Position numbers and translations under genes: made by a program. A DNA stretch of 64,000 nt, from the NCBI GenBank assembly GCA_010015585.1, contig ML975151.1. One strand, 5' to 3'. This document shows, piece by piece, positions 50,536-64,000 of the stretch; position 1 is the first letter of the stretch, and every line of letters begins with the position of its first letter. This stretch comes from Eremomyces bilateralis CBS 781.70 (taxonomy: Eukaryota). Below the pieces are notes generated by a model that made no database searches, was not told the DNA's origin, and saw nothing but the letters and a program-made list of their open reading frames with translations.

Positions 50536-53500
50536 ATGTCTCAAAAGGCCACCCTCAAGACCACGTTCGACCGCACCCAGGTCATCCAGCCCTTCTATAC
50601 CGGGGCGGGTGTTGCGCTGAGCCAGGATGGCCGAGTCCTTGCGACTTGCGTTGGGGAGGATGTCCTGCTCACCGATATGCGATCCGGGCAAGTTCTATCA
50701 CGGATAGAAGGCGTAAGTGCTCAAGATAGCAGCTCTCGTCATCCGGTTCTGACATGTTGACTGGTAGTAGGATGGTGAAATAGTTACGAGTCTCTCCTGT
50801 ACGGCCATACGTTTGTTCCGATCTCGATTCACGGTTCTAACAAGCCCTAGTAACCCCCTCCGCAAGCCATGTCATCGCCTGTTCCCGCTCCTTGTCGATG
50901 CGGATATACGCGATCGATGCGCCATCAGAAGATGCGACGGTCGAAGCAACCTTGCTCCGCACATTGAAGCCGCACTCGGCTCCGGTCATCGTCTGCGCTG
51001 TAGATAAGACCGGTACACTCCTTGCAACGGGGGGCGCAGATGGCGTCGTCAAAGTTTGGGACATCCGCGGCGGGTATGTCACGCACACTTTTCACGGGCA
51101 CAGCGGGATCATATCTGCGTTATTGTTCTTCGAGGTGGACCCGTCGACGCATCCCGAAACTAGCAAGAATACTGCCGGCCGGAAGCGGAAAGCGAACAGA
51201 AATGAAGTTGAGCAGGCCGAGGAGAACAACACCGCGGGCTTTCGACTGGCCTCGGGCGGTGAGGACGGAAAGGTGCGCGTATGGAATCTCCTCAAGCGGT
51301 CCACCGTCGCCATCCTGGATTCCCATGTCTCGGTAGTCCGAGGGCTTGACTACTGCCCCGAGGAAAATGCTTTAGTTTCCGCCAGTCGCGACCAGACAGC
51401 CATAATTTGGGATACTCAGACGTGGAAGACCAGAAACACCATACCAGTGCTCGAAGCCGTCGAAAGCTGTGGCTTTTTGCAGGGCGGGTCTGTGATCTTT
51501 ACGGCGGGCGAGAGAGGCTGCGTCCGATTATGGTCGGCGACGAAAGGAGAAGAAGTCACCGCCGAGCAGGACGAAGGTACAGAGACGGAAGCCATCCTCT
51601 CGGTCCTTTCGTCTGACCAGCTTCCCTTCCTCCTATCCGTCCATGCGGATCAGACTTTGGTGATGCACTCCTTAAGTCCGCTTACCGAAGACGGCTTAAA
51701 ACTGCCCATACCTCCATTACCTATATTGCGCCGCATATCCGGAACACATGACGAGGTCATTGATCTTGCGCTCATAGGTCAACATGGAAAGTATCTAGCA
51801 CTGGCCACAAACACCGAAGAGGTTCGCATCGTTTCCCTTGAAAGTCGGCAGGATACAGAGTCCTCAAATGACTCGTTCACTGGGGCATACTTTGGTTCGG
51901 ATATTGCACAGCTGAAGGCCCACGAGGACATTGTCATTACAATCGATGTTGATCCATCAGGACATTGGCTTGCCACCGGTTCGAAGGATAACACGGCCAG
52001 AATATGGAGGATGGATCCAGAGAACAACTCCTATGGCTGCCACGCTGTGTTCACTGGGCACGCCGGTGCTTTGGGTGGTATAGCAATGTCGCATTCCGAT
52101 CCCGAAACCGACGATCCTTTGTCCCGACCGCCACGCTGGTTGGTGACTGGCAGCCAGGACCGAACAGTCAAACGGTGGGAAGTCCCTCCTTACGTGCCCG
52201 GCAGAACGAATACGCCAGGGAAGGCTAAGTACACACGGAAGGCACATGACAAGGAGATCAACGCTCTCGACGCCTCATACCACCCCCGGGACCCCGTCTT
52301 CGCTTCCGCATCGCAGGACAAGACGGTGAAGATTTGGGATGTCGAGAGCGGTGAAACCCTCGGTGTCCTGCGCGGGCACTCGCGCGGTGTGTGGGCAGTG
52401 CGGTTCAGCCCCCTGGATCCTTCGATATCCATCCAAGGCGCGCAGCACCAGGGGACTGCGAAAGGGAAGGGATGGGTGGCCACCGGCGGTGGAGACCGGA
52501 CCGTACGGATTTGGAGTTTGGTCGACTATAGCTGCGTCGCGACGCTCGAAGGGCACTCGAACAGTGTGTTGAAGGTGGTGTGGCTGCCATCGCCCTCGAT
52601 GGCCGTAGATTCGTCCGCGAACAATGACGACGAGATGGACGTAGACGGCGGATCCGCCAAACCGCAGAAATCCACCGACAAACGAACACTCGTAGCGTCA
52701 GCGGCCGCGGATGGCCTTGTCAAGGTCTGGGACCTCTCGATCGGCGAATGCGCCACCACGTTGGACGGCCACGAGGACCGCGTCTGGGGCCTGGCCGTGA
52801 TCGATCCCGCCAAGAACGCGGGGACATACTCCGAGTATAATCCGCTCTTCTCCACGCGCACGCTGATCTCCGGTGGCGCTGACGCAGTGCTCAATTTCTG
52901 GAGCGATACGTCGGCGTCCACGGCGTCCGCCGCTGCGGAGCGCGAGGAGCGGATCATCGAGGAAGATCAGGAGTTGTCGAACCTGCGGTATGCCGGGAAG
53001 TTGCGCGAGGCCGTCGGGTTAGCTATTGCCATGGAACGACCCAGCACGCTGTTGAGCCTGTTCACCGAGGTTCTGCAAAAGAGCGCCGAAGCACACAATC
53101 CACACGAAGACGGTGAAACCATGGATGTCGACGTCAGTTCGACCACCGTCTCCCACCACCAGCGTCGACGAGTCCGAAAGATCGGCACCGACACCGACAA
53201 CGAAACCCTCAACGCCATCGTAAACGCCCTCAGCGACTCGCAAATCTTCGCTCTCCTCCTCTGGCTCCGCGACTGGAACGCCAGCGCCAAGAACTCCGGC
53301 ACCGCGCAGCGGGTGCTCTATGCGATCGTGCGCAACGTGCCAGCGGAGCGGATGGCGAAGCTGCATGGAGGGACGGTCACGGACGGGGGGCCGGAGGGGA
53401 AGCGGTTCCGGAAGGGGAAGGCGGAGTTGAAGGACGTGGTTGCGGCGCTGGCGGCGTATACGGAGCGGCATATACAGAGGGTGGATGAGTTGCAGGAGGA

Positions 53501-53555
53501 GAGCTATTTGGTAGATTTCACGTTGGGGGAGATGGATGACGTTGGGGGGGGTTGA
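50536..53555 (+). CDS. UTP13: U3 snoRNP WD40 protein Utp13
   Basis: LKTTF..IQPFYTG, ATGGADG..KVWD, AHDKEINA, many WD repeats and Utp13 tail (LRDWN, YTERH). Confidence 0.95.
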
Positions 53556-54076: not shown

Positions 54077-54640
54077 CTAATCAATCGTATTGATCTGCAA
54101 ACCTGCACATTCTCCCCATCGGCAGGATTGTAAATTGTATGTCTGGTCCTTCAGCACAACTCCCCAATCGTTCGCGTCCACTTTCCCAATCTTACGTATC
54201 AACGCCGCTTCACCTGGGACAGCCGGGTTTAAACACCGCTGCCAGTCCAAGCAGAAGACAATGCAACTGGCGCATCGCAAGTTCTTGTGCCCGCACTCGC
54301 ACGGCTCGAAAGCTATTAGACTCTTGGGGCCTTCGCGCCCTTTGTTAGACCGACCACACCTGTGGCACACGAAGCCATGTGTAACGAGGTCAGGGCGACC
54401 ATTTACCACGGAGTAAGTACCGAACTTCACCTTGCAGATAGCCCAAGAATCTATCTTGCAGTCGAGGCAAAGGGCGCGGTCGCACGCTTGGCAGCGAAGG
54501 GTGCCGAGCGGTCTCGACGGAGTCGGCTTGCGGGAGTCGAGAGTTTCGCTGTCCGGTGTAGGGAACGGGGTTTGCTCACCGCAGTGACGGCAGATCCAGT
54601 GGGAGGCGTCCAGCAACTTGTTAAAGGTTTGACAATACAT
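54077..54640 (-). CDS. Small Cys-rich protein with multiple CxxC pairs (double zinc-ribbon-like)
   Basis: Single 187-aa ORF with WICRHCG, CQAC..CLDC, CHRCG and CECG..CASC; TATA-like sequences upstream. Confidence 0.7.
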   Translation of the reverse strand: MYCQTFNKLLDASHWICRHCGEQTPFPTPDSETLDSRKPTPSRPLGTLRCQACDRALCLDCKIDSWAICKVKFGTYSVVNGRPDLVTHGFVCHRCGRSNKGREGPKSLIAFEPCECGHKNLRCASCIVFCLDWQRCLNPAVPGEAALIRKIGKVDANDWGVVLKDQTYNLQSCRWGECAGLQINTID

Positions 54641-56466
54641 ATTTAACTGGTGGTTATATAAGGTTGGTTGAGGTTGTTTCTGATGGAAGATTGGAACCTT
54701 GGAGTCGGCAGGCGCTTTATATAACCGTTTGGCCTATATATATAGCATCAAAGAAATATATGAATAGGATACACATTGTTCCTATGGTGGGTTGACAATG
54801 TCGATACCTTTTGTCCACCAAGTTTCTATATTGAGGTTCTGGGTCCAGAACAAAGAATATCGACTGAAAACAAAGATTTCAGGGAAATAAGAACCGTTCT
54901 ACAAATTCATTGCATTCCAGGTGTTTTACATCCATTGAACACGTGGGATCCTAGGTATTTTGAAGATTCAGGTTCATTCTCACGAAACTCGATTCCGACA
55001 GGACAACTTCCGCCACCATTCACCTTCGCAAGTTCCCGGAAATTCAGCATTGGCGACAATTTTCGTCGCACAAATCCTATCTATCATTGCCATTTACCGT
55101 TTGCTTCGCTAAATGGACTCCCTAGAGAGGGTTGATCACCTTGATCGCCTGTTCCAAGCCGGATCTCTGCGACCAGCTAAAAGGGGGAAGAGGGACTAAG
55201 GTGGCAAGCCAAGCGCTGCAATTAATGCGTATAGTAAGAAATCATAGTAGGCGATTAAAGGTCTATGACTTTGTTTGATAGTTCATGATCTCGCTCATGT
55301 TCATCTGAAGCACCAGATTCATATGGTGCTCGCATTCAGTGCGACGCCCAACTATACAGACCCAATACAAGAATATACAATTCGACATAAGGTAATAAAT
55401 CAAGTGATGACCGTGACGTTCATGTTTTCCAAACTGAATTATGTTTAAAATAGATAAGATACATCTTCCGACTCTAGGCGCTGTGGATTACGTCTAACAA
55501 TGGCGCTTTAGGGGCACAATTATTGTATCAGTCGCATCAGTGTCGAAAGAACCTGGCCATGGAAAAGAATAGTGTCAAGGGAGTCTGACAATTTCTACTG
55601 GTTTATAATTGCATTTAAACGCCGATATTCTGTTTCAAGATATCATATTTCCCTTAGACTGTAAGCTACTCTCCCTTTTCGGCTAGAAACACCTTCGTTG
55701 TTATTAATTACTTCGTATATTTGGTTGACGCTGAGCAACTCGACGAGCCGCAGTCGGCGACCTTAATGAACAAGCCGCCCTGATTAGACGGCTTAAGGGT
55801 ACACATCGTGATAATGCTGATATTAGCTTGGAGTTGCTTGATGCTGTTCATTCAGGCGAACCACGGTCAGCTACGTTGACTAGTTCATGGTTCTCGAGAT
55901 GTGTGTTAACACTAAATACGGACATTTTAATTAATACGCTCTTCAGACCGGTAGTCCCTGTGTGTAGGTGTTACTGCAGGAGGTGCTGTCGCGAAGATAG
56001 TGGTTGATAGATTCAAGGATAATGCAATTGAAGTCGTTTGAACCTTGGGCGGTAGCTACCTTTTTATACTGGCAGCAATTAGACCTGGTGAGTCAATATG
56101 ATTTAAAAGTTCACGAGTCCTAGGCAAATTGATAGCGTGTTTGAGCCCATAATGACTAATGCGGCAGCAAGATACCAACGCACTGTTTTAACCAGCAATA
56201 TCCCTTCACAAGACCCTGTCAGTCGTAAAGCTTGTCTGATATCCACCGTTGCCACCGATCATAAACAATGCAAGTCTAATAGAATCGATTTCCATTTCCT
56301 AGGCATATCATGCGATATGCCCAACGCCAAACACTCTTTAGCAACGGCTATGCCGTCGTGCTCAATATCAAATCCAAGCCAACTCCCACTTCCACAAGGA
56401 AGACGCCTCCTATATGCAAATATGCCAAGTCATTGAATCATCACGCGGGCACAGCCCTATTCTCCT

Positions 56467-58671
56467 TTACCACACAATACCCCTCCAGTCCGGGATTCCT
56501 GCATCAACGTTCCTCCAAACGTGTCCGTCCCAGCCGAGTCCCTCCTTGCCAAGCATGCCCTCCCAACCGACCATGACACCGAGGAGCCTGCATCCTGCAG
56601 AGCTGACCGCGCAGACCACCGCGTCGCACTTGCTGAGAATGCTGAGATCAAGCAGGTAGCTCCTGGCGAGCATCTCTCGCAGCTGCAATGTCTCCTGGCT
56701 CGGTGGGATGTAGTCCGAAATCCCGGCGTTTGATAGACTGGAGCCGGGCGAGTTGACGTCTGAATGGCCACCATTGTTGGAAGCCAACTTTGAAGGGTCG
56801 TCTTCATGTTGCGGTGGCTCCACCGGCTTTACCTTCGGTGGTATTGGCTTTAACTTCTGATTCGATGGCGGCCGTTGGCGGTTTGGCCGAGGGCCTCCAA
56901 CGGTACTCTGTTTACTTTTGTGGTCATGACCGAGCGACCAGAACACATCGGCGTAGAACCCTCCTTCCCAACCCAGCATATCGTCGACCCAACGCTTGAT
57001 TGGAGTCGCAGGCTTGCCACGATTTGCTGCAGCCGCTTCAGCAGCCGCCTTTGCTCGGGCGGCTTCCATCTGAATCTTTGAGCCAAGAATAATCCGGTCT
57101 TGCGCACGTGTTGCGCGTGACACCTCTGGCTCGAAGAAAATGTCCGGATCGTCCGAGGCAAGAATCAACTTGCTTTCCGACAAGCCAGGAGCGCCATGCC
57201 GTTTACCGTGCGTCGCTCGAAAGACAGCCTTTGCGAACGGGGAACGGGATTTTCGGTTCTTCGAGCGCTGTGAGTGGGGGGTAATCATGCCCAGACCAGT
57301 GGCGTCTTCCGCTCCGTCCTCGAACAGCTGGTATAGAACCTCCCTTCCCTCGTCCGTATATCTCGTCAAAGGTAAGTAATCGTCTCGGTACTGTGACTCG
57401 TACGGATGTCGGTCGCCTCTTCGGATATGCATTCCTACAGCCATGCCGCCCTCTTTTCTTGTCTGGTCGACGAGCTGCTTTACCCGCTGGTCTGCATATT
57501 TCTGGTCTCCTTCATCGGCAAGTTTGAAAAGCGCCTCATACCCTCTTCGGGCAAGCGCAAAAATGTTCTTTTGTCGCGCTGTCCCCATTCCTTTCGGATC
57601 CTCAAACGCTTCAATAAAGTGATGGCCAAAAGCGAAGGAATGCGTGGCAGAAGAAATGACTTTGTGGCGAGCGGAGTACGGGCAAGGAAGTCGATGGTGT
57701 GACGGCGGTGGAAGGCAAGATGGCGGCGGGGGATCCTGGAAGTAGGTCGTATAATTTCCATACGCCCACCTGGTGTCATCTACGAAGAAAGCTCTCTTTT
57801 CCTTCTCCGCAAGACCATATGCCATCCAGAGGCCCATGAGTGCCTTGCCAAACCCGGCATCGGTGCTCTCCAGGACGTATGTAAGGCTCCGCTTGCACAC
57901 TTTCAAATTCTCCGAACCTTCATCTTCGACCAAAGCTTCCTGAGCCTCCCCCACCTGTGGTAGCAGTCCCTCTCTTTCAGCTTCATCGATATCTATGAAG
58001 AATTTGTCCGTTTGATAGTACCCGTGTCTCTTTTTTCGAAGCTTCATCATACCAGTAAGGCCTCGCTCGGGTTTGTCAGGCTGTCCCGGCTCGTGATCCA
58101 CTCTGCCCTTCGCGACCCTCGATAGGTGATGCGGCATGTCATGCGCCTGCTCGCACAATTCATGATACCAGTTTTGCTCCAAGGGAAAATCGTACTGCTC
58201 AGGGATACTAATTGTCCAACTCGGTCTCCCAGCCTTGTCATGAACTATGAGAGCTGTAGGATAGTCCGGAGGTGCATCCTCCCCAACAATCTCATAGCCT
58301 GCTTCTCCCGGCCGAGGTCTTGGTGGCCGTAGTTGTGGTAATGTATTCGATCCTTGGGGGGGAGATTGGGAGAAGAGTCTCGGACCATATGCGAGGATGT
58401 GAAGCGCACCCCATAGAACGAGTATGATTCCGAGGAGTGGAAATAGAAGCTTCCATACTAGTCTGCTAGATCGAAGCGGTGTTCTTTTGCCGTGCCTTGG
58501 GATTAGAGATGGTAAGCTCGGAGAACTAGGCGTTCTGGGGGAGAGAAGAGGTCGGTTCAATGGGACGCCAAGTCGTGGGGATAGTGAGGATGTAGATGAT
58601 ATGGAAAGATGTGTCGGCTTTCGAGAATGCATGTCGGATCGTGGAGAGCGCGGATGTGAAGAAATAATCAT
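56467..58671 (-). CDS. Type II membrane protein with alpha-1,6-fucosyltransferase (FUT8/NodZ, GT23)-like motifs
   Basis: Single TM; GFG...AYG...RAFFVDDTRWAY, VGMHIRRGD, LILASDDP and DLSILSKCDAVVCAVSSAGCR. Confidence 0.75.
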   Translation of the reverse strand: MIISSHPRSPRSDMHSRKPTHLSISSTSSLSPRLGVPLNRPLLSPRTPSSPSLPSLIPRHGKRTPLRSSRLVWKLLFPLLGIILVLWGALHILAYGPRLFSQSPPQGSNTLPQLRPPRPRPGEAGYEIVGEDAPPDYPTALIVHDKAGRPSWTISIPEQYDFPLEQNWYHELCEQAHDMPHHLSRVAKGRVDHEPGQPDKPERGLTGMMKLRKKRHGYYQTDKFFIDIDEAEREGLLPQVGEAQEALVEDEGSENLKVCKRSLTYVLESTDAGFGKALMGLWMAYGLAEKEKRAFFVDDTRWAYGNYTTYFQDPPPPSCLPPPSHHRLPCPYSARHKVISSATHSFAFGHHFIEAFEDPKGMGTARQKNIFALARRGYEALFKLADEGDQKYADQRVKQLVDQTRKEGGMAVGMHIRRGDRHPYESQYRDDYLPLTRYTDEGREVLYQLFEDGAEDATGLGMITPHSQRSKNRKSRSPFAKAVFRATHGKRHGAPGLSESKLILASDDPDIFFEPEVSRATRAQDRIILGSKIQMEAARAKAAAEAAAANRGKPATPIKRWVDDMLGWEGGFYADVFWSLGHDHKSKQSTVGGPRPNRQRPPSNQKLKPIPPKVKPVEPPQHEDDPSKLASNNGGHSDVNSPGSSLSNAGISDYIPPSQETLQLREMLARSYLLDLSILSKCDAVVCAVSSAGCRLLGVMVGWEGMLGKEGLGWDGHVWRNVDAGIPDWRGIVW

Positions 58672-58694: not shown

Positions 58695-58869
58695 CACCAG
58701 TCCAATGGTGAGTCTTAACTGGTAGACGCCACTTTCAAATGCAATAGAAATTATGAACGAATGTAGGGCTATAGCATTAGCACCAGTCCAATGGTGAGTC
58801 TTAACTGGTAGACGCCACTTTCAAATGCAATAGAAATTATGAACGAATGTAGGGCTATAGCATTAGCAC
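58695..58869. repeat. Perfect 86-bp tandem duplication
   Basis: CACCAGTCCAATGG...CTATAGCATTAG starts at 58695 and again at 58781, with CAC microhomology. Confidence 0.95.
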
Positions 58870-61324
58870 GAGTATACGAAAGCTCTCAATGAGGTGAAAT
58901 GGTGAAGGAAATGTCGACGGTGACGTTGTGCCGTTGCCCGGCCGTTGGAATTTGGCAAAAGGGATAGAAAAAGATAATGCGATCTAAGGAAGACCAGAAT
59001 GTAGATCGAGTTGATATGATGAGGATCGTCGAACCGTCCGATCAACGGCCTATCAAACGCCCCACAGGGTCCTGTTACAGGCCGAAACACGGAAACGGGA
59101 GGAGGGTCGACCCATACAGGGCAAACGGAGTACACCAGATTGAATGAGCAGGTTGGAGGACTCAGATAACGTTTCGACTCAGGATTGATCAAGAAGGTCT
59201 GACAAAGAAAGATGGCGGAGCGACATCACGAAGATGCGCTGGTTGCAGCGGAAAGCTAACTTGGATGGATGTGAAAAAAGAATCGCACTAGCAAGAGGCA
59301 GACCCGGCGTATATGCATTAAGATGTCCACAGGACAGGCAAATTATGCCGAGAAAGCAGGATATGGTCCGGGGTCCTTCCTGATCAGCTTCATTCCGAGA
59401 CGTTGTGAGATATTCCAGCATAATATGGGAGCACAGCAGCTTGCATCGTCGTATGAATGGATGGCTGCTGCTGCTCCCGCTGCCGCTCACCTTGAGACCA
59501 TTTATGTGCCCCTTTGATGATCTTGTCGATTACAAGGCTCGAATGACGACCACCATGTTGACCTTCTGTATTCAAAGAAGTTCGATGGGACCGGACTTGC
59601 GCCGGTCGGAACGATTGACGTGAGGGATGTCGTTCCGGGACAAGATGTGTGAGAAGGAGAGTCACTAGAGAGAGGGAGGGGATGTGGACAAGGGCTCTGA
59701 TACGCTTGGCCCGCCCACTTGAAACACGCCATGATGTCGTGCGACGTTTCCATTAAATACGTCCTCCGATACGGAGTACTCTCTGCACTCTGGTCTTTGG
59801 TCTACTATGTATGGGTTCTCGTCACTATTATGGTTTCCCAGCCAAATCTAGGAATCCGTCTAAACTCTAATTTCCAACCAGAATACAAGATAACAAAGGG
59901 GGGTGTGGCACGTGGGTCCTGGCAAATCACATGACCACTAATGTGTCACGTGAAATTGCCTTGAACGTCACCTAACTTGGGACAACCAGGCGGTTAAACT
60001 TGATCGTGCAACAATAGAGGACAAAGACGCCAAGTATAACATTGTACCCGGTTCGTATATTCATGAAAAGGTTGGCTACAAAGGATTGATTATTGTGAAA
60101 ATGAGACTCTTCGGCCATGTTGCTCCGCCACAACTCTGCCTTGTACACGTTGCAGTGCAGGTAGTAAAGTACGGCAGCGCAAGTCTCATTCATTGCGCCG
60201 ACTTCACTCTGAGTCATGAAAGAACGACTGGAATACTGGATGTCTGAGATGGTGAGTCCATTGTGTACAGTATCGACGCGACCAAGGAATTGTGTTTTCT
60301 TCTGGCACGTCAGGATAGTATGCTGTATGGTCAACTGAGTCTGGCATCCAGATTGCCCTCAGCTGTCAAAAGGTGTAGATCATGGTAGCTTGACAAGGGA
60401 TGAATGAGCAAGGATACTGATGCCTCAGCGATTGCGAATGGAGCCAAATCGATGAAATAAAGCGAGGTAGGAATTGTTGTTGCAGACAACAAGAAAGACC
60501 AGAAGCGGACGGGACATATGATACAGATACAGTACTGGTATTGGTATATCAGTAAGGGAGCAAGACACGAAACGAGCATTCAACTGCCCAACATTGAAGA
60601 CCCTATTCTAACCCCTTGATTGTGAGGTAATTTACCATATTACCTACCCACCTATTTCAATGCAATAAGGGATCCATTCCTTACATATCGCAATCACTCA
60701 GTTGGTAGACCAAGGTGTTGACACCTTCGTTCTTTCGTACATTTAGCGGCTCCTCATGCAGCAAACCCATGAACTTAATATACATGATAGTATCATATGC
60801 CGACCAGTGGACTCGTTGGATTGGAAAAGAGAAACAAAACAGAGCAAGTCTCGTACAGGATGCAGTGGGACTCCAAGCCCGGCTTGCGCCAGGCGTCTTC
60901 GTCGCGGAAACCATCCATGAAGAGAGACCCCCTATCCGATGCCCTGATGCCTTGTGAAGCTCGCTGAAAAGAAAGTGTAGACGAAAAAAGATCGATGCAA
61001 AGTGGGTATGGGTATGGTTTAACGACAGATGGAAGAATCCAAGAAAGGGTATCGGTGGAGAAGTAGAAAGAAAGAAAAAATAGAACGAAATAGAAAGCTC
61101 ATCGGGGACGCCAGTTCCGCAACATCTTGAATACCACATGACGCCATCAAATCAATTCGTTCTCTTCCTTCGAGCGGGCAGTTTGTCACTGCAGTCCTGT
61201 GAATCGCCCATGCAGACATAGAATGAAAGGCTCGTCGGGCGCGGAAAACTCGTAAAGCGCATTGCTTGGAAATCCATGACCGGATCTTCTCCACAGGAGT
61301 CAGAAAGAGGATGGGAAACTGAGA

Positions 61325-64000
61325 TCATTTCCCGACCACAATGCCACTATCCACCCTCACCTCCTCCTCTTCCGTGGTGCCGAGCGCTGGGCCGCCAACC
61401 ACGCCGCCAACCGCGCCTCCAACCGCGCCTCCCTCCGCCTTTTCGTCCCCATCAATATTCAAGACGCCCCCCGCAAAGCTCATCCGGCTCCGCTCCGTGA
61501 TCATCTGATCCAGCAACCGCGTCATTTCCTCGACGCCCCGCCGTCGCTCTTCGCCTTCCGTCGTCTCCTTCTCCGTGCCACCGTTCAGCAGCGCAACCGG
61601 CGTGTGCTTCACCCCGTTCGGTGCCACCGGCCCTGCCTCGTTCGTTGCCACCGGCCCCGCGGCGTTCAACGCGGCGGCGCTGCCTGCGCTCCCACCACTC
61701 CCGCCGCTACTCTGACTCCGCACGCTCGCTCGCTTGTTCACCAGAATCGGGCTGACCGTGCGACTCGCAGGGGAGCCACCAACGTTCAATCCCAACCCCA
61801 CCCCATTCCCCGTGTCGACCTTCAGATCCCCAAGCCGCAACCGCGACCTCAGCGCCTGACACATCCGCTCCAGATCGCCCACCCGGCCCCTCAGCTCGCT
61901 GATCTCCCGGTCCTTCTCCTGGAACACTACTTCGACCCCCGCGCCGTCCTTCCCGTCCTTCGCTGCGGACTCGCGACACGCGACGCAGAAGCTCGTGCCG
62001 GCACCGCTCGGCCCGCCGAAGAAACCGCTGGAGATACGGCTGCTGGAGCTGCGGCGCGCCTGCAGCAGGCGGCGCTCGAGCGTATTGATGTAGCGGTTTT
62101 TGTCGGCGACGTCGGCGCGCAGCGCGTGCAGTTGGGTTGAGAGGGACGCGGTGCCGTCGCCGTTGCTACCGAGGCTGTCGGTCGAGTCGGCGTCGGAGGC
62201 GGCAAAGTTGAGGGCTGGGGATGGGTGCACGCCGTGGGTGGCGGGGGTGGAGGCGGTGGAGAGGCGGGAGGCGGAGGTGTGGCGCTGGAGGGAGCGGAGG
62301 GAAGCGGAGCCGGATTCGGTGCGGCGAAGGGCGGTGGGAGGATGTGGAGCGCCGTTTGCGTCGAGGGTGGTCGTGGAGGCAGATCGGGCGGAGGTGGTGG
62401 ACGCTTGGCGGCTGAGAGGGAGTTGAAGATCGGCGGCGGACATGAGGGATTGGCGGGAGGAATGGGCAGTAGGCCTATTGCCCAGGGCGGAGACGCTGCG
62501 AGGTACGGTCATATTATGTGTGTGATTGACGCCGATGGATTTCGATGATAGAATGAGGCGGTTGAGGTGCTCGATTCGCTCTTTCAGGGCGGTACGTGCA
62601 AGCTGCATCTCGAGCATTTGCTCTTCGTGGCGAGCTTGCATCTCTTCCTCTTCTTTGGCCTTCCGCTCACGCTCTTCCTCGGCGTCGAGAGCGGCCGACT
62701 CCGGATCATGATCGGGCTCGCCTATCGCGCCCGATGCGCCGCCTTTGGATGAAACGTCCTTCTGCCCTTCGAGCTGGCGACGGAGCTCGAGGATTTCCAC
62801 TCGATACCGGTCAAGAAGAGCTCGGGAAGTTGCATCACCTGCGAGAGCTTCCTCCGCCTTTTTGGCGTGCGAGACGATATTGTTCTTGGCACGAGAAGCG
62901 AACTTGAGAGTATTCAACGTCTCGCCAGTGTGATTCTGAGCGCTCGCCACGGATCCCGCAGACCCGATTTGGATGGTACAAAGGATTGAAACCAGAGAGT
63001 TCCCTGAGAGTGCGGGTTGGAGGAGTCGGGTGAGTTTCGAGTCGCGGTAAGGTAAATGCTTGAGGCCGTCTTTACCATCTTTCTCCTTGCCATCCCCCTT
63101 CTTGTCTCCATCTTTATCCCCGGACAATCTTCCGATGACAGTTCCAAGCGTAAGCAGGGACTTATTGATGTGCGCTCCCTCCGTCCTTCGCTCCTTATTT
63201 TCTGCAGCCCGTTCACTCCCGGCCAAATCGATCAAGCTTAGTGTACTCACGCGAACACCACCTGGAGCAATACCCGTTCGCTTGTCGGCGCCTGGGGCCG
63301 AGGCGCCAGGTGGTGAACTTCGTTCCCGCGACTCAACGACGATCTGCACGACGGCATGCGAACGGGAACTTCTCGCGTTATATTGCGTCGATCCGGTCCG
63401 CCTAGAATTGTCACCTCTAGCGATCACTCTCAGCAACTGCGTCGGGCTCTGTACGATCTCTTCCTTCAGCGGCGTGGCGTAGACGCCTCTCTTGCTATCC
63501 TCCCGTAGTTTAATCTCTTCTTGCGGACCTCCCGTCATTCCGTTCACACCGGCAGCCGGGGTCGATAGCAGGTCGTGGATCTTCTCGTTGTAGATTTCCA
63601 GATAGCTGACCCGCAGCAAGAATTCTCGATGGGGCGTTTCGCGGATGAAGGAGAAGATGTCGGTGATGGCAAGTGGGATCACACCAGGGCTGGTGGCCGT
63701 ACCTTGCATGGAAAAGGTCTTACCAGTGCCTGTCATACCATAGGCGAAAACGGTGCCGTGGTAACCCTCCATGACACGGCGCACGAGACGCTTTGCGGCA
63801 GAATCGTAGACTTTGGCATTCTGGTCGTGCGCAGCGAAGACATTGTCTAGAACATGGCTGTTAGCACAATATATGAGCACGTGCAATCGCCGGGAACTTA
63901 CCATAATAATACTCTCCCCCTTCCCTTCCACGATACGATATCAAAGACCGTCTTCCGTCAACCATCCACTCCAATTCGCTCTTTTGTCCATCATGCCCAA
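61325..64000 (-). CDS. Kinesin-7 (KipA/Kip2-like), 5' end beyond the window
   Basis: P-loop YGMTGTGKT, VSYLEIYNE, NARSSRSH, LIDLAGSE, HLPYRDSKLTRLLQ, coiled coils and ALKERIEHLNRLIL. Confidence 0.95.

Follow-up and report, generated by a model that had tools for sequence, protein, structure and literature searches.

FUT8 is an alpha-1,6-fucosyltransferase of family GT23. The FUT8 loop at residues 218 to 221 is a phosphate-binding backbone, Glu373 is the catalytic base, Tyr250, His363 and Asp453 form hydrogen bonds with guanosine, and a Lys369Ala mutation abolishes activity (PMC7033129). In mushrooms, alpha-1,6-fucose has been found on N-glycans, and no FUT8-family enzyme is identified for it (PMC4106090). 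For Pezizomycotina, a survey counts 134 homologues of the Pfam family FUT8_N_cat, which it presents as scarce and as coming largely from entomopathogens (PMC10481521). The FUT8-like gene analyzed here belongs to a family for which we found no description in the literature searched, in keeping with the uncharacterised status given to it in a preliminary description of the locus.

The gene lies in a 64,000-nucleotide stretch of Eremomyces bilateralis DNA (the window) and is present in a single copy in the genome. Its whole coding frame occupies 56467..58671 on the minus strand, as do all features given below, and translation yielded 734 residues followed by a stop, with zero internal stops. The NCBI protein of this dothideomycete is the same sequence except for two called introns, which bears out the earlier assignment of the locus to an ascomycete. 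The two stretches spliced out of the public gene model are both in frame and measure 111 nt (57229..57339) and 129 nt (56803..56931). The frame is open across the first, which has no canonical donor or branch consensus, and a public contig reads through it unspliced (the kind of sequencing run is uncertain). Removal of the second deletes the conserved G581. Both called introns are probably coding sequence. The neighboring genes are Utp13-like and kinesin genes, which suggests that no glycan gene cluster surrounds the FUT8-like gene.

The protein begins with a Ser/Pro/Arg-rich tail (residues 1 to 74; 58450..58671), which is presumed from the inferred topology to face the cytosol and contains an SPxxPxLPSLxPRHGK stretch that is also present in the family consensus. 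A single transmembrane segment follows (residues 75 to 93; 58393..58449), with a Kyte-Doolittle 19-mer mean of 2.43, the only strongly hydrophobic segment in the protein. Exactly one N-terminal hydrophobic segment was found within the first 200 residues of 82/84 full-length homologues. By hydropathy, the sole basis for assigning topology, the segment is a type II anchor, as proposed previously. A conserved stem of a hairpin and helices (residues 125 to 255; 57907..58299) lies outside the part aligned with FUT8 and leads into the FUT8-type GT-B catalytic domain (residues 256 to 734; 56470..57906), delimited by fold match and profiles, which includes two nonconserved insertions modeled with low confidence. 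The last residues of the protein form a W-x-N-x-D...W element (residues 719 to 734; 56470..56517) in which W719, D723 and W729 are present in nearly all 45 sequences of the tree. All 117 of 117 homologues extend only 25 to 50 residues beyond motif III. An SH3 domain is absent: no SH3 Pfam match was obtained, and the alignment with FUT8 ends at FUT8 residue 502.

With the single protein as the query, FUT8_N_cat gave 11.7 bits (E of 0.11) against a gathering score of 27.6, NCBIfam gave no match, and the PDB search returned chance matches only, with no fucosyltransferase. Profiles built from homologues matched FUT8 with E values of about 1e-8 and 1.8e-11 and aligned three motifs in order; the sequence parallel exceeds chance. 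The family profile also matched NodZ (E of 6e-4), and no fucosyltransferase other than these two had an E value below 10. A profile from C-terminal fragments did not extend the alignment to FUT8 acceptor residues beyond Cys472. Among the homologues, 1/14 and 0/17 reached the FUT8_N_cat gathering score. Neither O-FucT (PF10250) nor GT11 (PF01531) matched this protein and no GT11 chain appeared in the fold lists; PF01531 gave subthreshold matches in 2/14 homologues. The PF10250 search of the genome was uninformative, since it returned no match and its controls likewise returned none.

The predicted model (pLDDT of 82, pTM of 0.84) retrieved FUT8 first in Foldseek (E of 1.4e-6). FUT8 was also first in the VIA fold comparison, with a Z score of 18.5 and an rmsd of 3.3 over 254 residues aligned to FUT8 202-502, followed by NodZ (14.7), POFUT1 (12.4), POFUT2 (12.1), plant FUT1 (11.4) and a next match at 8.1. 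The alignment begins at model residue 132, which is residue 256 of the protein; model residues 1 to 131, considered for a counterpart of the FUT8 N-terminal coiled-coil domain and folded as part of the whole model, did not align to FUT8. The FUT8/NodZ-type fold proposed in the preliminary description was thus recovered, and the protein is almost certainly a type II GT-B protein of FUT8 lineage.

The motifs originally quoted all occur in the translation, in an order that parallels FUT8: GFG (273-275), AYG (284-286), WAY (302-304), VGMHIRRGD (412-420), LILASDDP (502-509) and DLSILSKCDAVVCAVSSAGCR (675-695). The A-G-F-G loop (272-275; 57847..57858) aligns with FUT8 218-221, with G273 conserved in 119/119 homologues and G275 in 114/119. 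In W-A-Y-G (302-305; 57757..57768), the counterpart of Tyr250, Y304, is kept in 118/119. The motif I loop (412-425; 57397..57438) aligns with FUT8 without gaps and places H415, R417, R421 and E425 at His363, Arg365, Lys369 and Glu373; among the 119 homologues, H415 is found in 115, R417 in 119, Arg or Lys at 421 in 91 and E425 in 112. E425 is also present in 93/93 further homologues and is missing from 3/6 Pezizomycete/Orbiliomycete members and from most basidiomycete members. In motif II (502-509; 57145..57168), S506, D507 and D508 align with Thr408, Asp409 and Asp410, and each Asp is present in 118/119. Between motifs II and III, a G-W-E-G-G-F element (567-572; 56956..56973) is near-invariant among ascomycete members (W568 and G571, each 119/119). 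Motif III (670-695; 56587..56664) aligns to FUT8 Val450-Cys472, so that Y672, D675, C687, S691, A692, G693 and C694 correspond to Val450, Asp453, Cys465, Ser469, Gln470, Val471 and Cys472, and D675 is kept in 116/119. Counterparts of the FUT8 catalytic residues Arg365, Lys369 and Glu373 are all carried by this protein, and conservation in the family centers on the active-site loops. Motif conservation among fungal homologues held at H415 and at D507/D508 but not at R418, the counterpart of FUT8 Arg366 and the second member of the reported Arg pair. While R417 is invariant, position 418 is Arg in 66/119 and His in 53/119 homologues, Arg in 23/93 further homologues with His otherwise, and Lys in 10/10 basidiomycete-side homologues. 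The Arg pair of motif I, present in this protein, is not constant across the family, and its second member had been overrated.

Orthologues were found in all major Pezizomycotina classes sampled and also in polypores (six) and rusts. The family is pan-Dikarya and vertically inherited, and some of its UniRef entries are automatically labeled "GT23" or "Fucosyltransferase"; the preliminary description had overlooked both the family and these labels. Aspergillus, Penicillium, Fusarium, Neurospora, Magnaporthe, Saccharomycotina and Taphrinomycotina were not named among the matches listed (best 120 of 361 and best 120 of 602), and since only these best matches were listed, we infer no absence from such taxa. 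The lineages of the basidiomycete copies possess GDP-fucose genes.

Ascomycete and basidiomycete copies differ in the donor site, a contrast that represents one evolutionary event and not many independent ones. Residues 691 to 693 are S-N-[VIM] in 10/10 basidiomycete-side homologues, resembling S-Q-V of FUT8. In the first ascomycete set (n = 117), Asn occurs at 692 in 1/117, Gln, as in FUT8 Gln470, in 0/117, and position 693 is exclusively Gly, Thr, Ala or Ser in 117/117. Position 672 is Tyr in 118/119 homologues versus Val450 in FUT8. Val450, Gln470 and Val471, which provide guanine stacking and contact phosphate and acceptor, are thus replaced here by Y672, A692 and G693; because the base-stacking Val450 and Val471 have become Tyr and Gly, the guanine pocket is not simply retained. 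The counterpart of Ser469 is Ala in 33/117 and 52/93 homologues, and that of Lys369 is nonbasic in 28/119 and 42/93.

Genome searches were made in six frames, exon by exon, on one assembly that is possibly incomplete. Within that scope they found no GDP-mannose 4,6-dehydratase (best 47 bits versus a cutoff of 415), no GDP-fucose synthase (best 50 versus 500) and no salvage fucose pyrophosphorylase; eight SDR matches correspond to a UDP-glucose dehydratase, two GalE, two sterol dehydrogenase-like genes and one reductase-like gene. In keeping with the preliminary remark that filamentous ascomycetes are not generally described as making GDP-fucose, this fungus appears unable to make it. The genome does encode a Vrg4-type GDP-mannose transporter (E of 5e-48 and 2e-39 to solved transporters) and several further nucleotide-sugar transporters.

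Our best explanation, held tentatively, is that the protein descends from FUT8 (GT23), has switched donor and works as an inverting glycosyltransferase of the secretory pathway with a GDP-sugar other than fucose. It would act in the secretory-pathway lumen by the metal-independent, inverting single-displacement mechanism of FUT8, with the pyrophosphate held by R417 (with R421), the acceptor hydroxyl deprotonated by E425 and the nucleoside held by Y304, H415 and D675. Because no route to GDP-fucose was found in the genome, the donor should be another nucleotide sugar; GDP-alpha-D-mannose is the likeliest of all, given that the guanosine contacts are kept and a Vrg4-type transporter is present. 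This donor, also suggested in the preliminary description, leads narrowly as a guess and is placed slightly ahead of UDP-rhamnose. Inversion from GDP-alpha-D-mannose would yield a beta-mannoside, carried by a glycan of either a glycoprotein or a glycolipid, and absence of the SH3 exosite suggests an acceptor unlike the GlcNAc-capped complex N-glycan of FUT8. Against GDP-mannose, the family has variable counterparts of the pyrophosphate residues Ser469 and Lys369, the base-stacking positions are altered, E425 is missing from some members, the genome carries a UDP-rhamnose pathway, the ring shape of alpha-D-mannose differs from that of beta-L-fucose, and we know of no FUT8-fold enzyme with GDP-mannose as its donor. 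The family's Atlas cluster is named "Alpha-1,2-mannosyltransferase"; this name is automatic, has no Pfam family behind it and was given no weight as evidence for GDP-mannose; an inverting enzyme using GDP-mannose would not form that linkage.

In a reading that we consider unlikely, the same enzyme and mechanism would instead use UDP-beta-L-rhamnose, making the protein an alpha-L-rhamnosyltransferase that acts on glycans of the wall or on secreted ones. The geometry of a 6-deoxy-L-sugar would stay and only the base would change, and replacement of Val450 by Tyr could narrow the base pocket. The genome contains a divergent gene pair for UDP-L-rhamnose, a UDP-glucose 4,6-dehydratase (E of 2.5e-44 to a solved dehydratase) and a 3,5-epimerase/4-reductase (E of 2e-44 to 4qqr and 1e-30 to the UDP-L-rhamnose synthase 7jid); the frame that lies between the two weakly resembles nucleotide-sugar transporters (Pfam E of 9e-4). 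RmlD-like genes are reported from 638 fungal genera (PMC12295706), and plant GT106 proteins, which are POFUT-related, employ UDP-rhamnose with an equivalent Arg (PMC13010939). However, the counterparts of Tyr250, His363 and Asp453 are kept, the FUT8-like gene is not close to the rhamnose pair (contig C3 versus C2), and UDP-rhamnose is described in certain species only (PMC5698552), whereas the FUT8-like gene is found in every major class sampled. Botrytis showed no visible change when its whole UDP-rhamnose pathway was deleted (PMC5698552), and in Sporothrix rhamnose transfer is attributed to two other genes, RHT1 and RHT2 (PMC13429783). Use of another lumenal UDP-sugar (galactofuranose, galactose, glucose, GlcNAc, xylose or glucuronic acid) by an active inverting transferase is improbable. 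The further transporters and the altered positions 672, 692 and 693 of ascomycetes would accommodate it, but base and sugar must both change, a switch for which this analysis found no precedent in the fold, and the guanosine contacts are kept.

The often nonpolar counterparts of Ser469 and Lys369, considered with the inactivity of Lys369Ala FUT8, could also point to a noncatalytic or weakly catalytic protein, such as a nucleotide-sugar or glycan binder or a transferase partner, retained after GDP-fucose synthesis was lost. Differing functions have been proposed for plant POFUT-like proteins, among them MANNAN SYNTHESIS RELATED1 (PMC13010939). This reading is quite improbable given R417 in 119/119 and E425 in 112/119 and 93/93 homologues, the full catalytic complement of this protein and conservation centered on the active-site loops. 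Least probable is that the protein is still an alpha-fucosyltransferase that obtains GDP-fucose by an unrecognised route or only upon fucose scavenging. Its closest solved relatives are fucosyltransferases throughout, some UniRef entries carry the corresponding labels, and the Pezizomycotina survey reports 11 GDP-fucose synthases and speculates on a substitute dehydratase (PMC10481521). Those labels are automatic, the S-Q/N-V signature is lost from ascomycete copies, the genome has no dehydratase, synthase or pyrophosphorylase, and in the same survey GDP-mannose dehydratases, fucokinases and GDP-fucose transporters each number 0 for Pezizomycotina (PMC10481521). On present sequence evidence, the enzyme probably transfers a sugar other than fucose onto a glycan that nobody has yet tied to it.

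Filamentous ascomycetes, crop and skin pathogens among them, share this conserved and apparently single-copy glycosyltransferase, to which no function has been assigned. It is automatically labeled a fucosyltransferase although its hosts seem to lack the means to make GDP-fucose. A donor switch, if true, would reveal how an enzyme with the FUT8 fold can move to a new donor and would indicate a fungal glycan that is as yet unassigned. A broader scenario, which we regard as doubtful, is that a single gene of the FUT8 lineage was inherited by Dikarya. Basidiomycetes keep GDP-fucose synthesis, and there the gene would encode the missing enzyme behind the oligomannosidic N-glycans of mushrooms that bear alpha-1,6-fucose. 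In filamentous ascomycetes the gene would have outlasted the loss of GDP-fucose through a switch of donor; its product would be the first mannosyl- or rhamnosyltransferase with a FUT8 fold, responsible for a Pezizomycotina-wide glycan modification with no assigned enzyme. The basidiomycete orthologues are concrete candidates for the enzyme missing in mushrooms (PMC4106090).

Among described systems, the surveyed FUT8_N_cat set resembles this family in comprising fungal FUT8-like proteins from lineages without GDP-mannose dehydratase. The two are probably different sets, as judged by accession look-ups only: 0/12 looked-up accessions were shared, and the survey counts 0 in Agaricomycotina versus the 6 polypore orthologues found here (PMC10481521). 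FUT8 itself (PDB 6vlf, 6tkv, 6x5s) has in common with this protein the type II anchor and GT-B domain, the G-loop, W-x-Y and motifs I to III in the same order, and counterparts of Arg365, Lys369, Glu373, His363, Tyr250, Asp453, Ser469, Cys204, Cys465 and Cys472. The two differ in that identity is 17% over the aligned part, the stem is different, the SH3 exosite of FUT8 has no equivalent here, and Val450, Gln470 and Val471 are substituted; this protein also falls under the FUT8_N_cat cutoff, in a host genome without the GDP-fucose pathway. NodZ (GT23; PDB 2hhc), the rhizobial alpha-1,6-fucosyltransferase, is the second-best fold (Z of 14.7, rmsd of 3.5, 228 residues aligned) and likewise has no SH3 domain, but it is a 330-residue bacterial protein, whereas the present one has 734 residues, a membrane anchor and a eukaryotic vertical distribution. 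Plant GT106 (RRT/FRB1) is POFUT-related, while this protein is nearer FUT8 (Z of 18.5) than POFUT1/2 (12.4 and 12.1) and does not match the Pfam family O-FucT; GT106 nevertheless represents a fucosyltransferase-like GT-B that switched to UDP-rhamnose with its catalytic Arg kept (PMC13010939).

The gene under study (window 56467-58671, minus strand) encodes a FUT8/NodZ-like type II membrane protein, here the query, in a single open frame of 734 codons plus stop whose translation contains, in order, all motifs cited in the preliminary description. It is single copy: whether the genome was searched with the query, with a basidiomycete homologue or with Pfam FUT8_N_cat, this locus was the only match. 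A protein recorded at NCBI for the dothideomycete Eremomyces bilateralis is identical at 654/654 residues, the sole difference being two in-frame, low-complexity loops modelled as introns, residues 445-481 (window 57229-57339, minus strand) and 581-623 (window 56803-56931, minus strand). Both lack any canonical donor or branch consensus, removing the second deletes a Gly kept in 138/144 aligned relatives, and a 2,522-nt public contig crosses both without a joint (the RNA or DNA origin of that run is only guessed). The frame is therefore probably intronless; both called introns look coding, and the public protein is probably mis-modelled. The neighbours, a Utp13-like WD40 gene (window 50841-53555, plus strand) and a kinesin motor gene (window 61325-63940, minus strand), form an ordinary housekeeping context. 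Between the Utp13-like gene and the query gene lies a Cys-rich 218-codon frame with several CxxC pairs (window 54077-54733, minus strand; weak Pfam matches, E 0.025 and 0.05). An exact 86-bp tandem duplication (window 58695-58873; 2.1 copies, 98% match) lies a short way upstream of the query start codon; in public contigs the unit depth is doubled, and one contig bridges the junction.

The query alone matched Pfam FUT8_N_cat at E 0.11, and a single-sequence search with it found no glycosyltransferase in the PDB. A profile from 128 relatives matched eight FUT8 sequences at E ~1e-8 and NodZ at 0.022; a 16-sequence profile including basidiomycete members reached 1.8e-11 and 6e-4, respectively. 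Residues 125-734 were modelled with AlphaFold2 from 143 sequences (pLDDT 82, pTM 0.84), and the model gave FUT8 as the top Foldseek match (E 1.4e-6), followed by NodZ (1.4e-4) and plant FUT1 (0.02). In a VIA search of 48,161 chains, FUT8 was again first (Z 18.5, rmsd 3.3, 254 aligned), ahead of NodZ (14.7), POFUT1 (12.4), POFUT2 (12.1), plant FUT1 (11.4) and the next chain (8.1). The preliminary description named the lack of a FUT8 or GT-B structural match as a refutation; the model, Foldseek and VIA supplied such a match. The query is a real, well-supported FUT8-lineage protein and, as judged from the predicted model, FUT8-like by every structural test.

Homologue searches returned 361 proteins, 322 representatives at 50% and 602 proteins. 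Named members among the matches listed belong to Dothideomycetes, Eurotiomycetes, Leotiomycetes, Sordariomycetes and Lecanoromycetes, among others, and include Orbilia, Peziza, Tuber, Ascobolus and Rhizina; no model mould or yeast is named among the matches listed, which cannot be read as absence. Searching from a distant member added six polypore proteins, three rust proteins and one further protein (P0285-P0294); for a polypore protein, alignment to the query spanned 233 residues at 32% (E 2e-26). The query is not peculiar to this genome but belongs to an uncharacterised family across Dikarya. A FastTree tree of 45 sequences hand-picked for breadth (489 columns, root placed on basidiomycetes) recovered Sordariomycetes (1.0), their grouping with Leotiomycetes (1.0), Eurotiales (0.99) and the majority of Dothideomycetes (0.98); Pezizomycetes and Orbilia were basal, and deep nodes were weak. 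This topology follows the pattern of vertical descent.

Residues were counted in the best 119 of 361 homologues (identical copy of the query removed) and in 94 further homologues among the matches listed of 602 proteins. FUT8 numbering was the chain index of the profile alignments plus 107, and residue roles follow PMC7033129. R417 (Arg365) and G273 were found in 119/119 homologues, D420, D507, Y304 (Tyr250), C687 and C694 in 118/119 each, D675 (Asp453) in 116/119 and H415 (His363) in 115/119. E425, matching the catalytic base Glu373, a match absent from the preliminary description, was kept in 112/119 and in all 93 further homologues with the motif located. The proposed GDP-binding Arg pair held for its first member, R417, and was overstated for its second: R418 is Arg in only 66/119 and 23/93. 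Motif I Asp D420 is Ser, Asn or Glu in some divergent members (P0209, P0213, P0174, P0193, P0229), two of which have Eurotiales proteins nearest. The query has one N-terminal hydrophobic segment (from residue 75), as do 82/84 full-length homologues. A second, weaker segment of the query, at 684, lies within the fold, where it coincides with the strand and helix of motif III.

Other positions differ from FUT8. The Ser469 counterpart is Ala in 33/117 and 52/93 homologues; that of Lys369 (residue 421) is R or K in 91/119 and non-basic in 28/119 and 42/93. Val450 is replaced by Tyr in 118/119, Gln470 is Gln in none of the homologues counted, and Val471 is G/T/A/S in 117/117. These replacements speak against the family being a plain FUT8 copy. 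Ascomycete members are altered at 691-693 and 421. In all 10 basidiomycete-side proteins, by contrast, 691 is Ser, 692 is Asn and 693 is Val/Ile/Met, resembling the FUT8 Ser-Gln-Val, and 421 is basic. This shift fits a donor change upon GDP-fucose loss, but counts as a single event on the tree. Cutting the other way, the Glu373 position is mostly non-acidic in basidiomycete-side proteins (Gly 5, Asp 3, Asn 1, Ala 1), their Tyr250 position is Arg, and 3/6 basal ascomycete members lack the Glu.

The genome search proposed in the preliminary description recovered neither GDP-mannose 4,6-dehydratase (best 47 bits versus a cut-off of 415; controls above cut-off, 5/14) nor GDP-fucose synthase (50 versus 500; controls, 3/14), and the genome gave no fucose pyrophosphorylase (18 versus 34). 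Eight matches to the broad Pfam family came from six genes: one UDP-glucose 4,6-dehydratase, two GalE, two sterol-dehydrogenase-like and one reductase-like, the last three labels being interpretive. One GalE-like gene has a long N-terminal extension (contig C10, L002 1267-2655); the other, on C18, contains an intron. The lack of GDP-fucose genes agrees with the Pezizomycotina counts of PMC10481521, whose supplement 3 gives 0 dehydratases, 11 synthases, 0 fucokinases and 0 GDP-fucose transporters, versus 238, 163, 0 and 298 for Agaricomycotina and 35, 39, 0 and 19 for Pucciniomycotina. Fucose as the continuing donor is the least probable reading.

As in FUT8, the query would perform a lumenal, metal-independent, inverting sugar transfer, in which R417 would contact the pyrophosphate and E425 would serve as the base. 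GDP-fucose derives from GDP-mannose with C1 and C2 untouched. Because of this, and because the guanosine contacts are kept and a Vrg4-type GDP-mannose transporter is present in the genome, we tentatively favour GDP-mannose or another non-fucose GDP-sugar as donor; GDP-mannose would yield a beta-mannoside. UDP-rhamnose is a more doubtful donor. It would leave the 6-deoxy-L geometry unchanged, GT106 offers a precedent (PMC13010939), and divergent UDP-glucose 4,6-dehydratase and 3,5-epimerase/4-reductase genes form a UDP-L-rhamnose pathway (G000:C2:1830200-1834600; L016 8200-9390, minus strand; L017 2-2583), with a nucleotide-sugar-transporter-like frame between them (Pfam E 9e-4, weak) that is a candidate UDP-rhamnose transporter. 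However, UDP-rhamnose is patchy and dispensable in Botrytis (PMC5698552), and rhamnose transfer in Sporothrix is credited to other genes (PMC13429783). Another UDP-sugar is unlikely, and a non-catalytic protein less probable still.

Neither the FUT8 fold nor the GT23 label is new: the likeness already exists as an automatic label, because 7/10 UniRef entries examined, chosen for such names, are called 'Glycosyltransferase family 23 protein'. NCBI labels members hypothetical; 5 of the best 120 of 361 homologues have a precomputed FUT8_N_cat match, and 1/14 and 0/17 homologues scanned reached the cut-off. No description of the family was found in the literature covered, including by locus tags of five pathogens' orthologues; most subscription journals and supplement locus tags fall outside that coverage. 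FUT8-like proteins of Pezizomycotina are described in PMC10481521, which concludes that fungi are capable of all kinds of fucosylation; its parts examined do not draw out the donor problem for these proteins. Of 12 accessions of the query family looked up in its list, 0 were present, and it counts no FUT8-like protein in Agaricomycotina. According to PMC4106090, a FUT8-family enzyme behind mushroom N-glycan alpha-1,6-fucose had not been identified. The polypore and rust orthologues, overlooked by Pfam (0/10 at cut-off), are candidates for that enzyme, most without an acid at the Glu373 position.

In FUT8, an SH3 exosite gives the preference for GlcNAc-capped glycans (PMC7033129). The chain ends 25-50 residues past motif III in 117/117 homologues, leaving no space for it. 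As a member of FUT8, the query fails for want of SH3, at three donor-site residues, at the Pfam cut-off and in the donor supply of its genome. What makes the family of interest is that its fold and its donor supply contradict each other in a clean, directly testable way.
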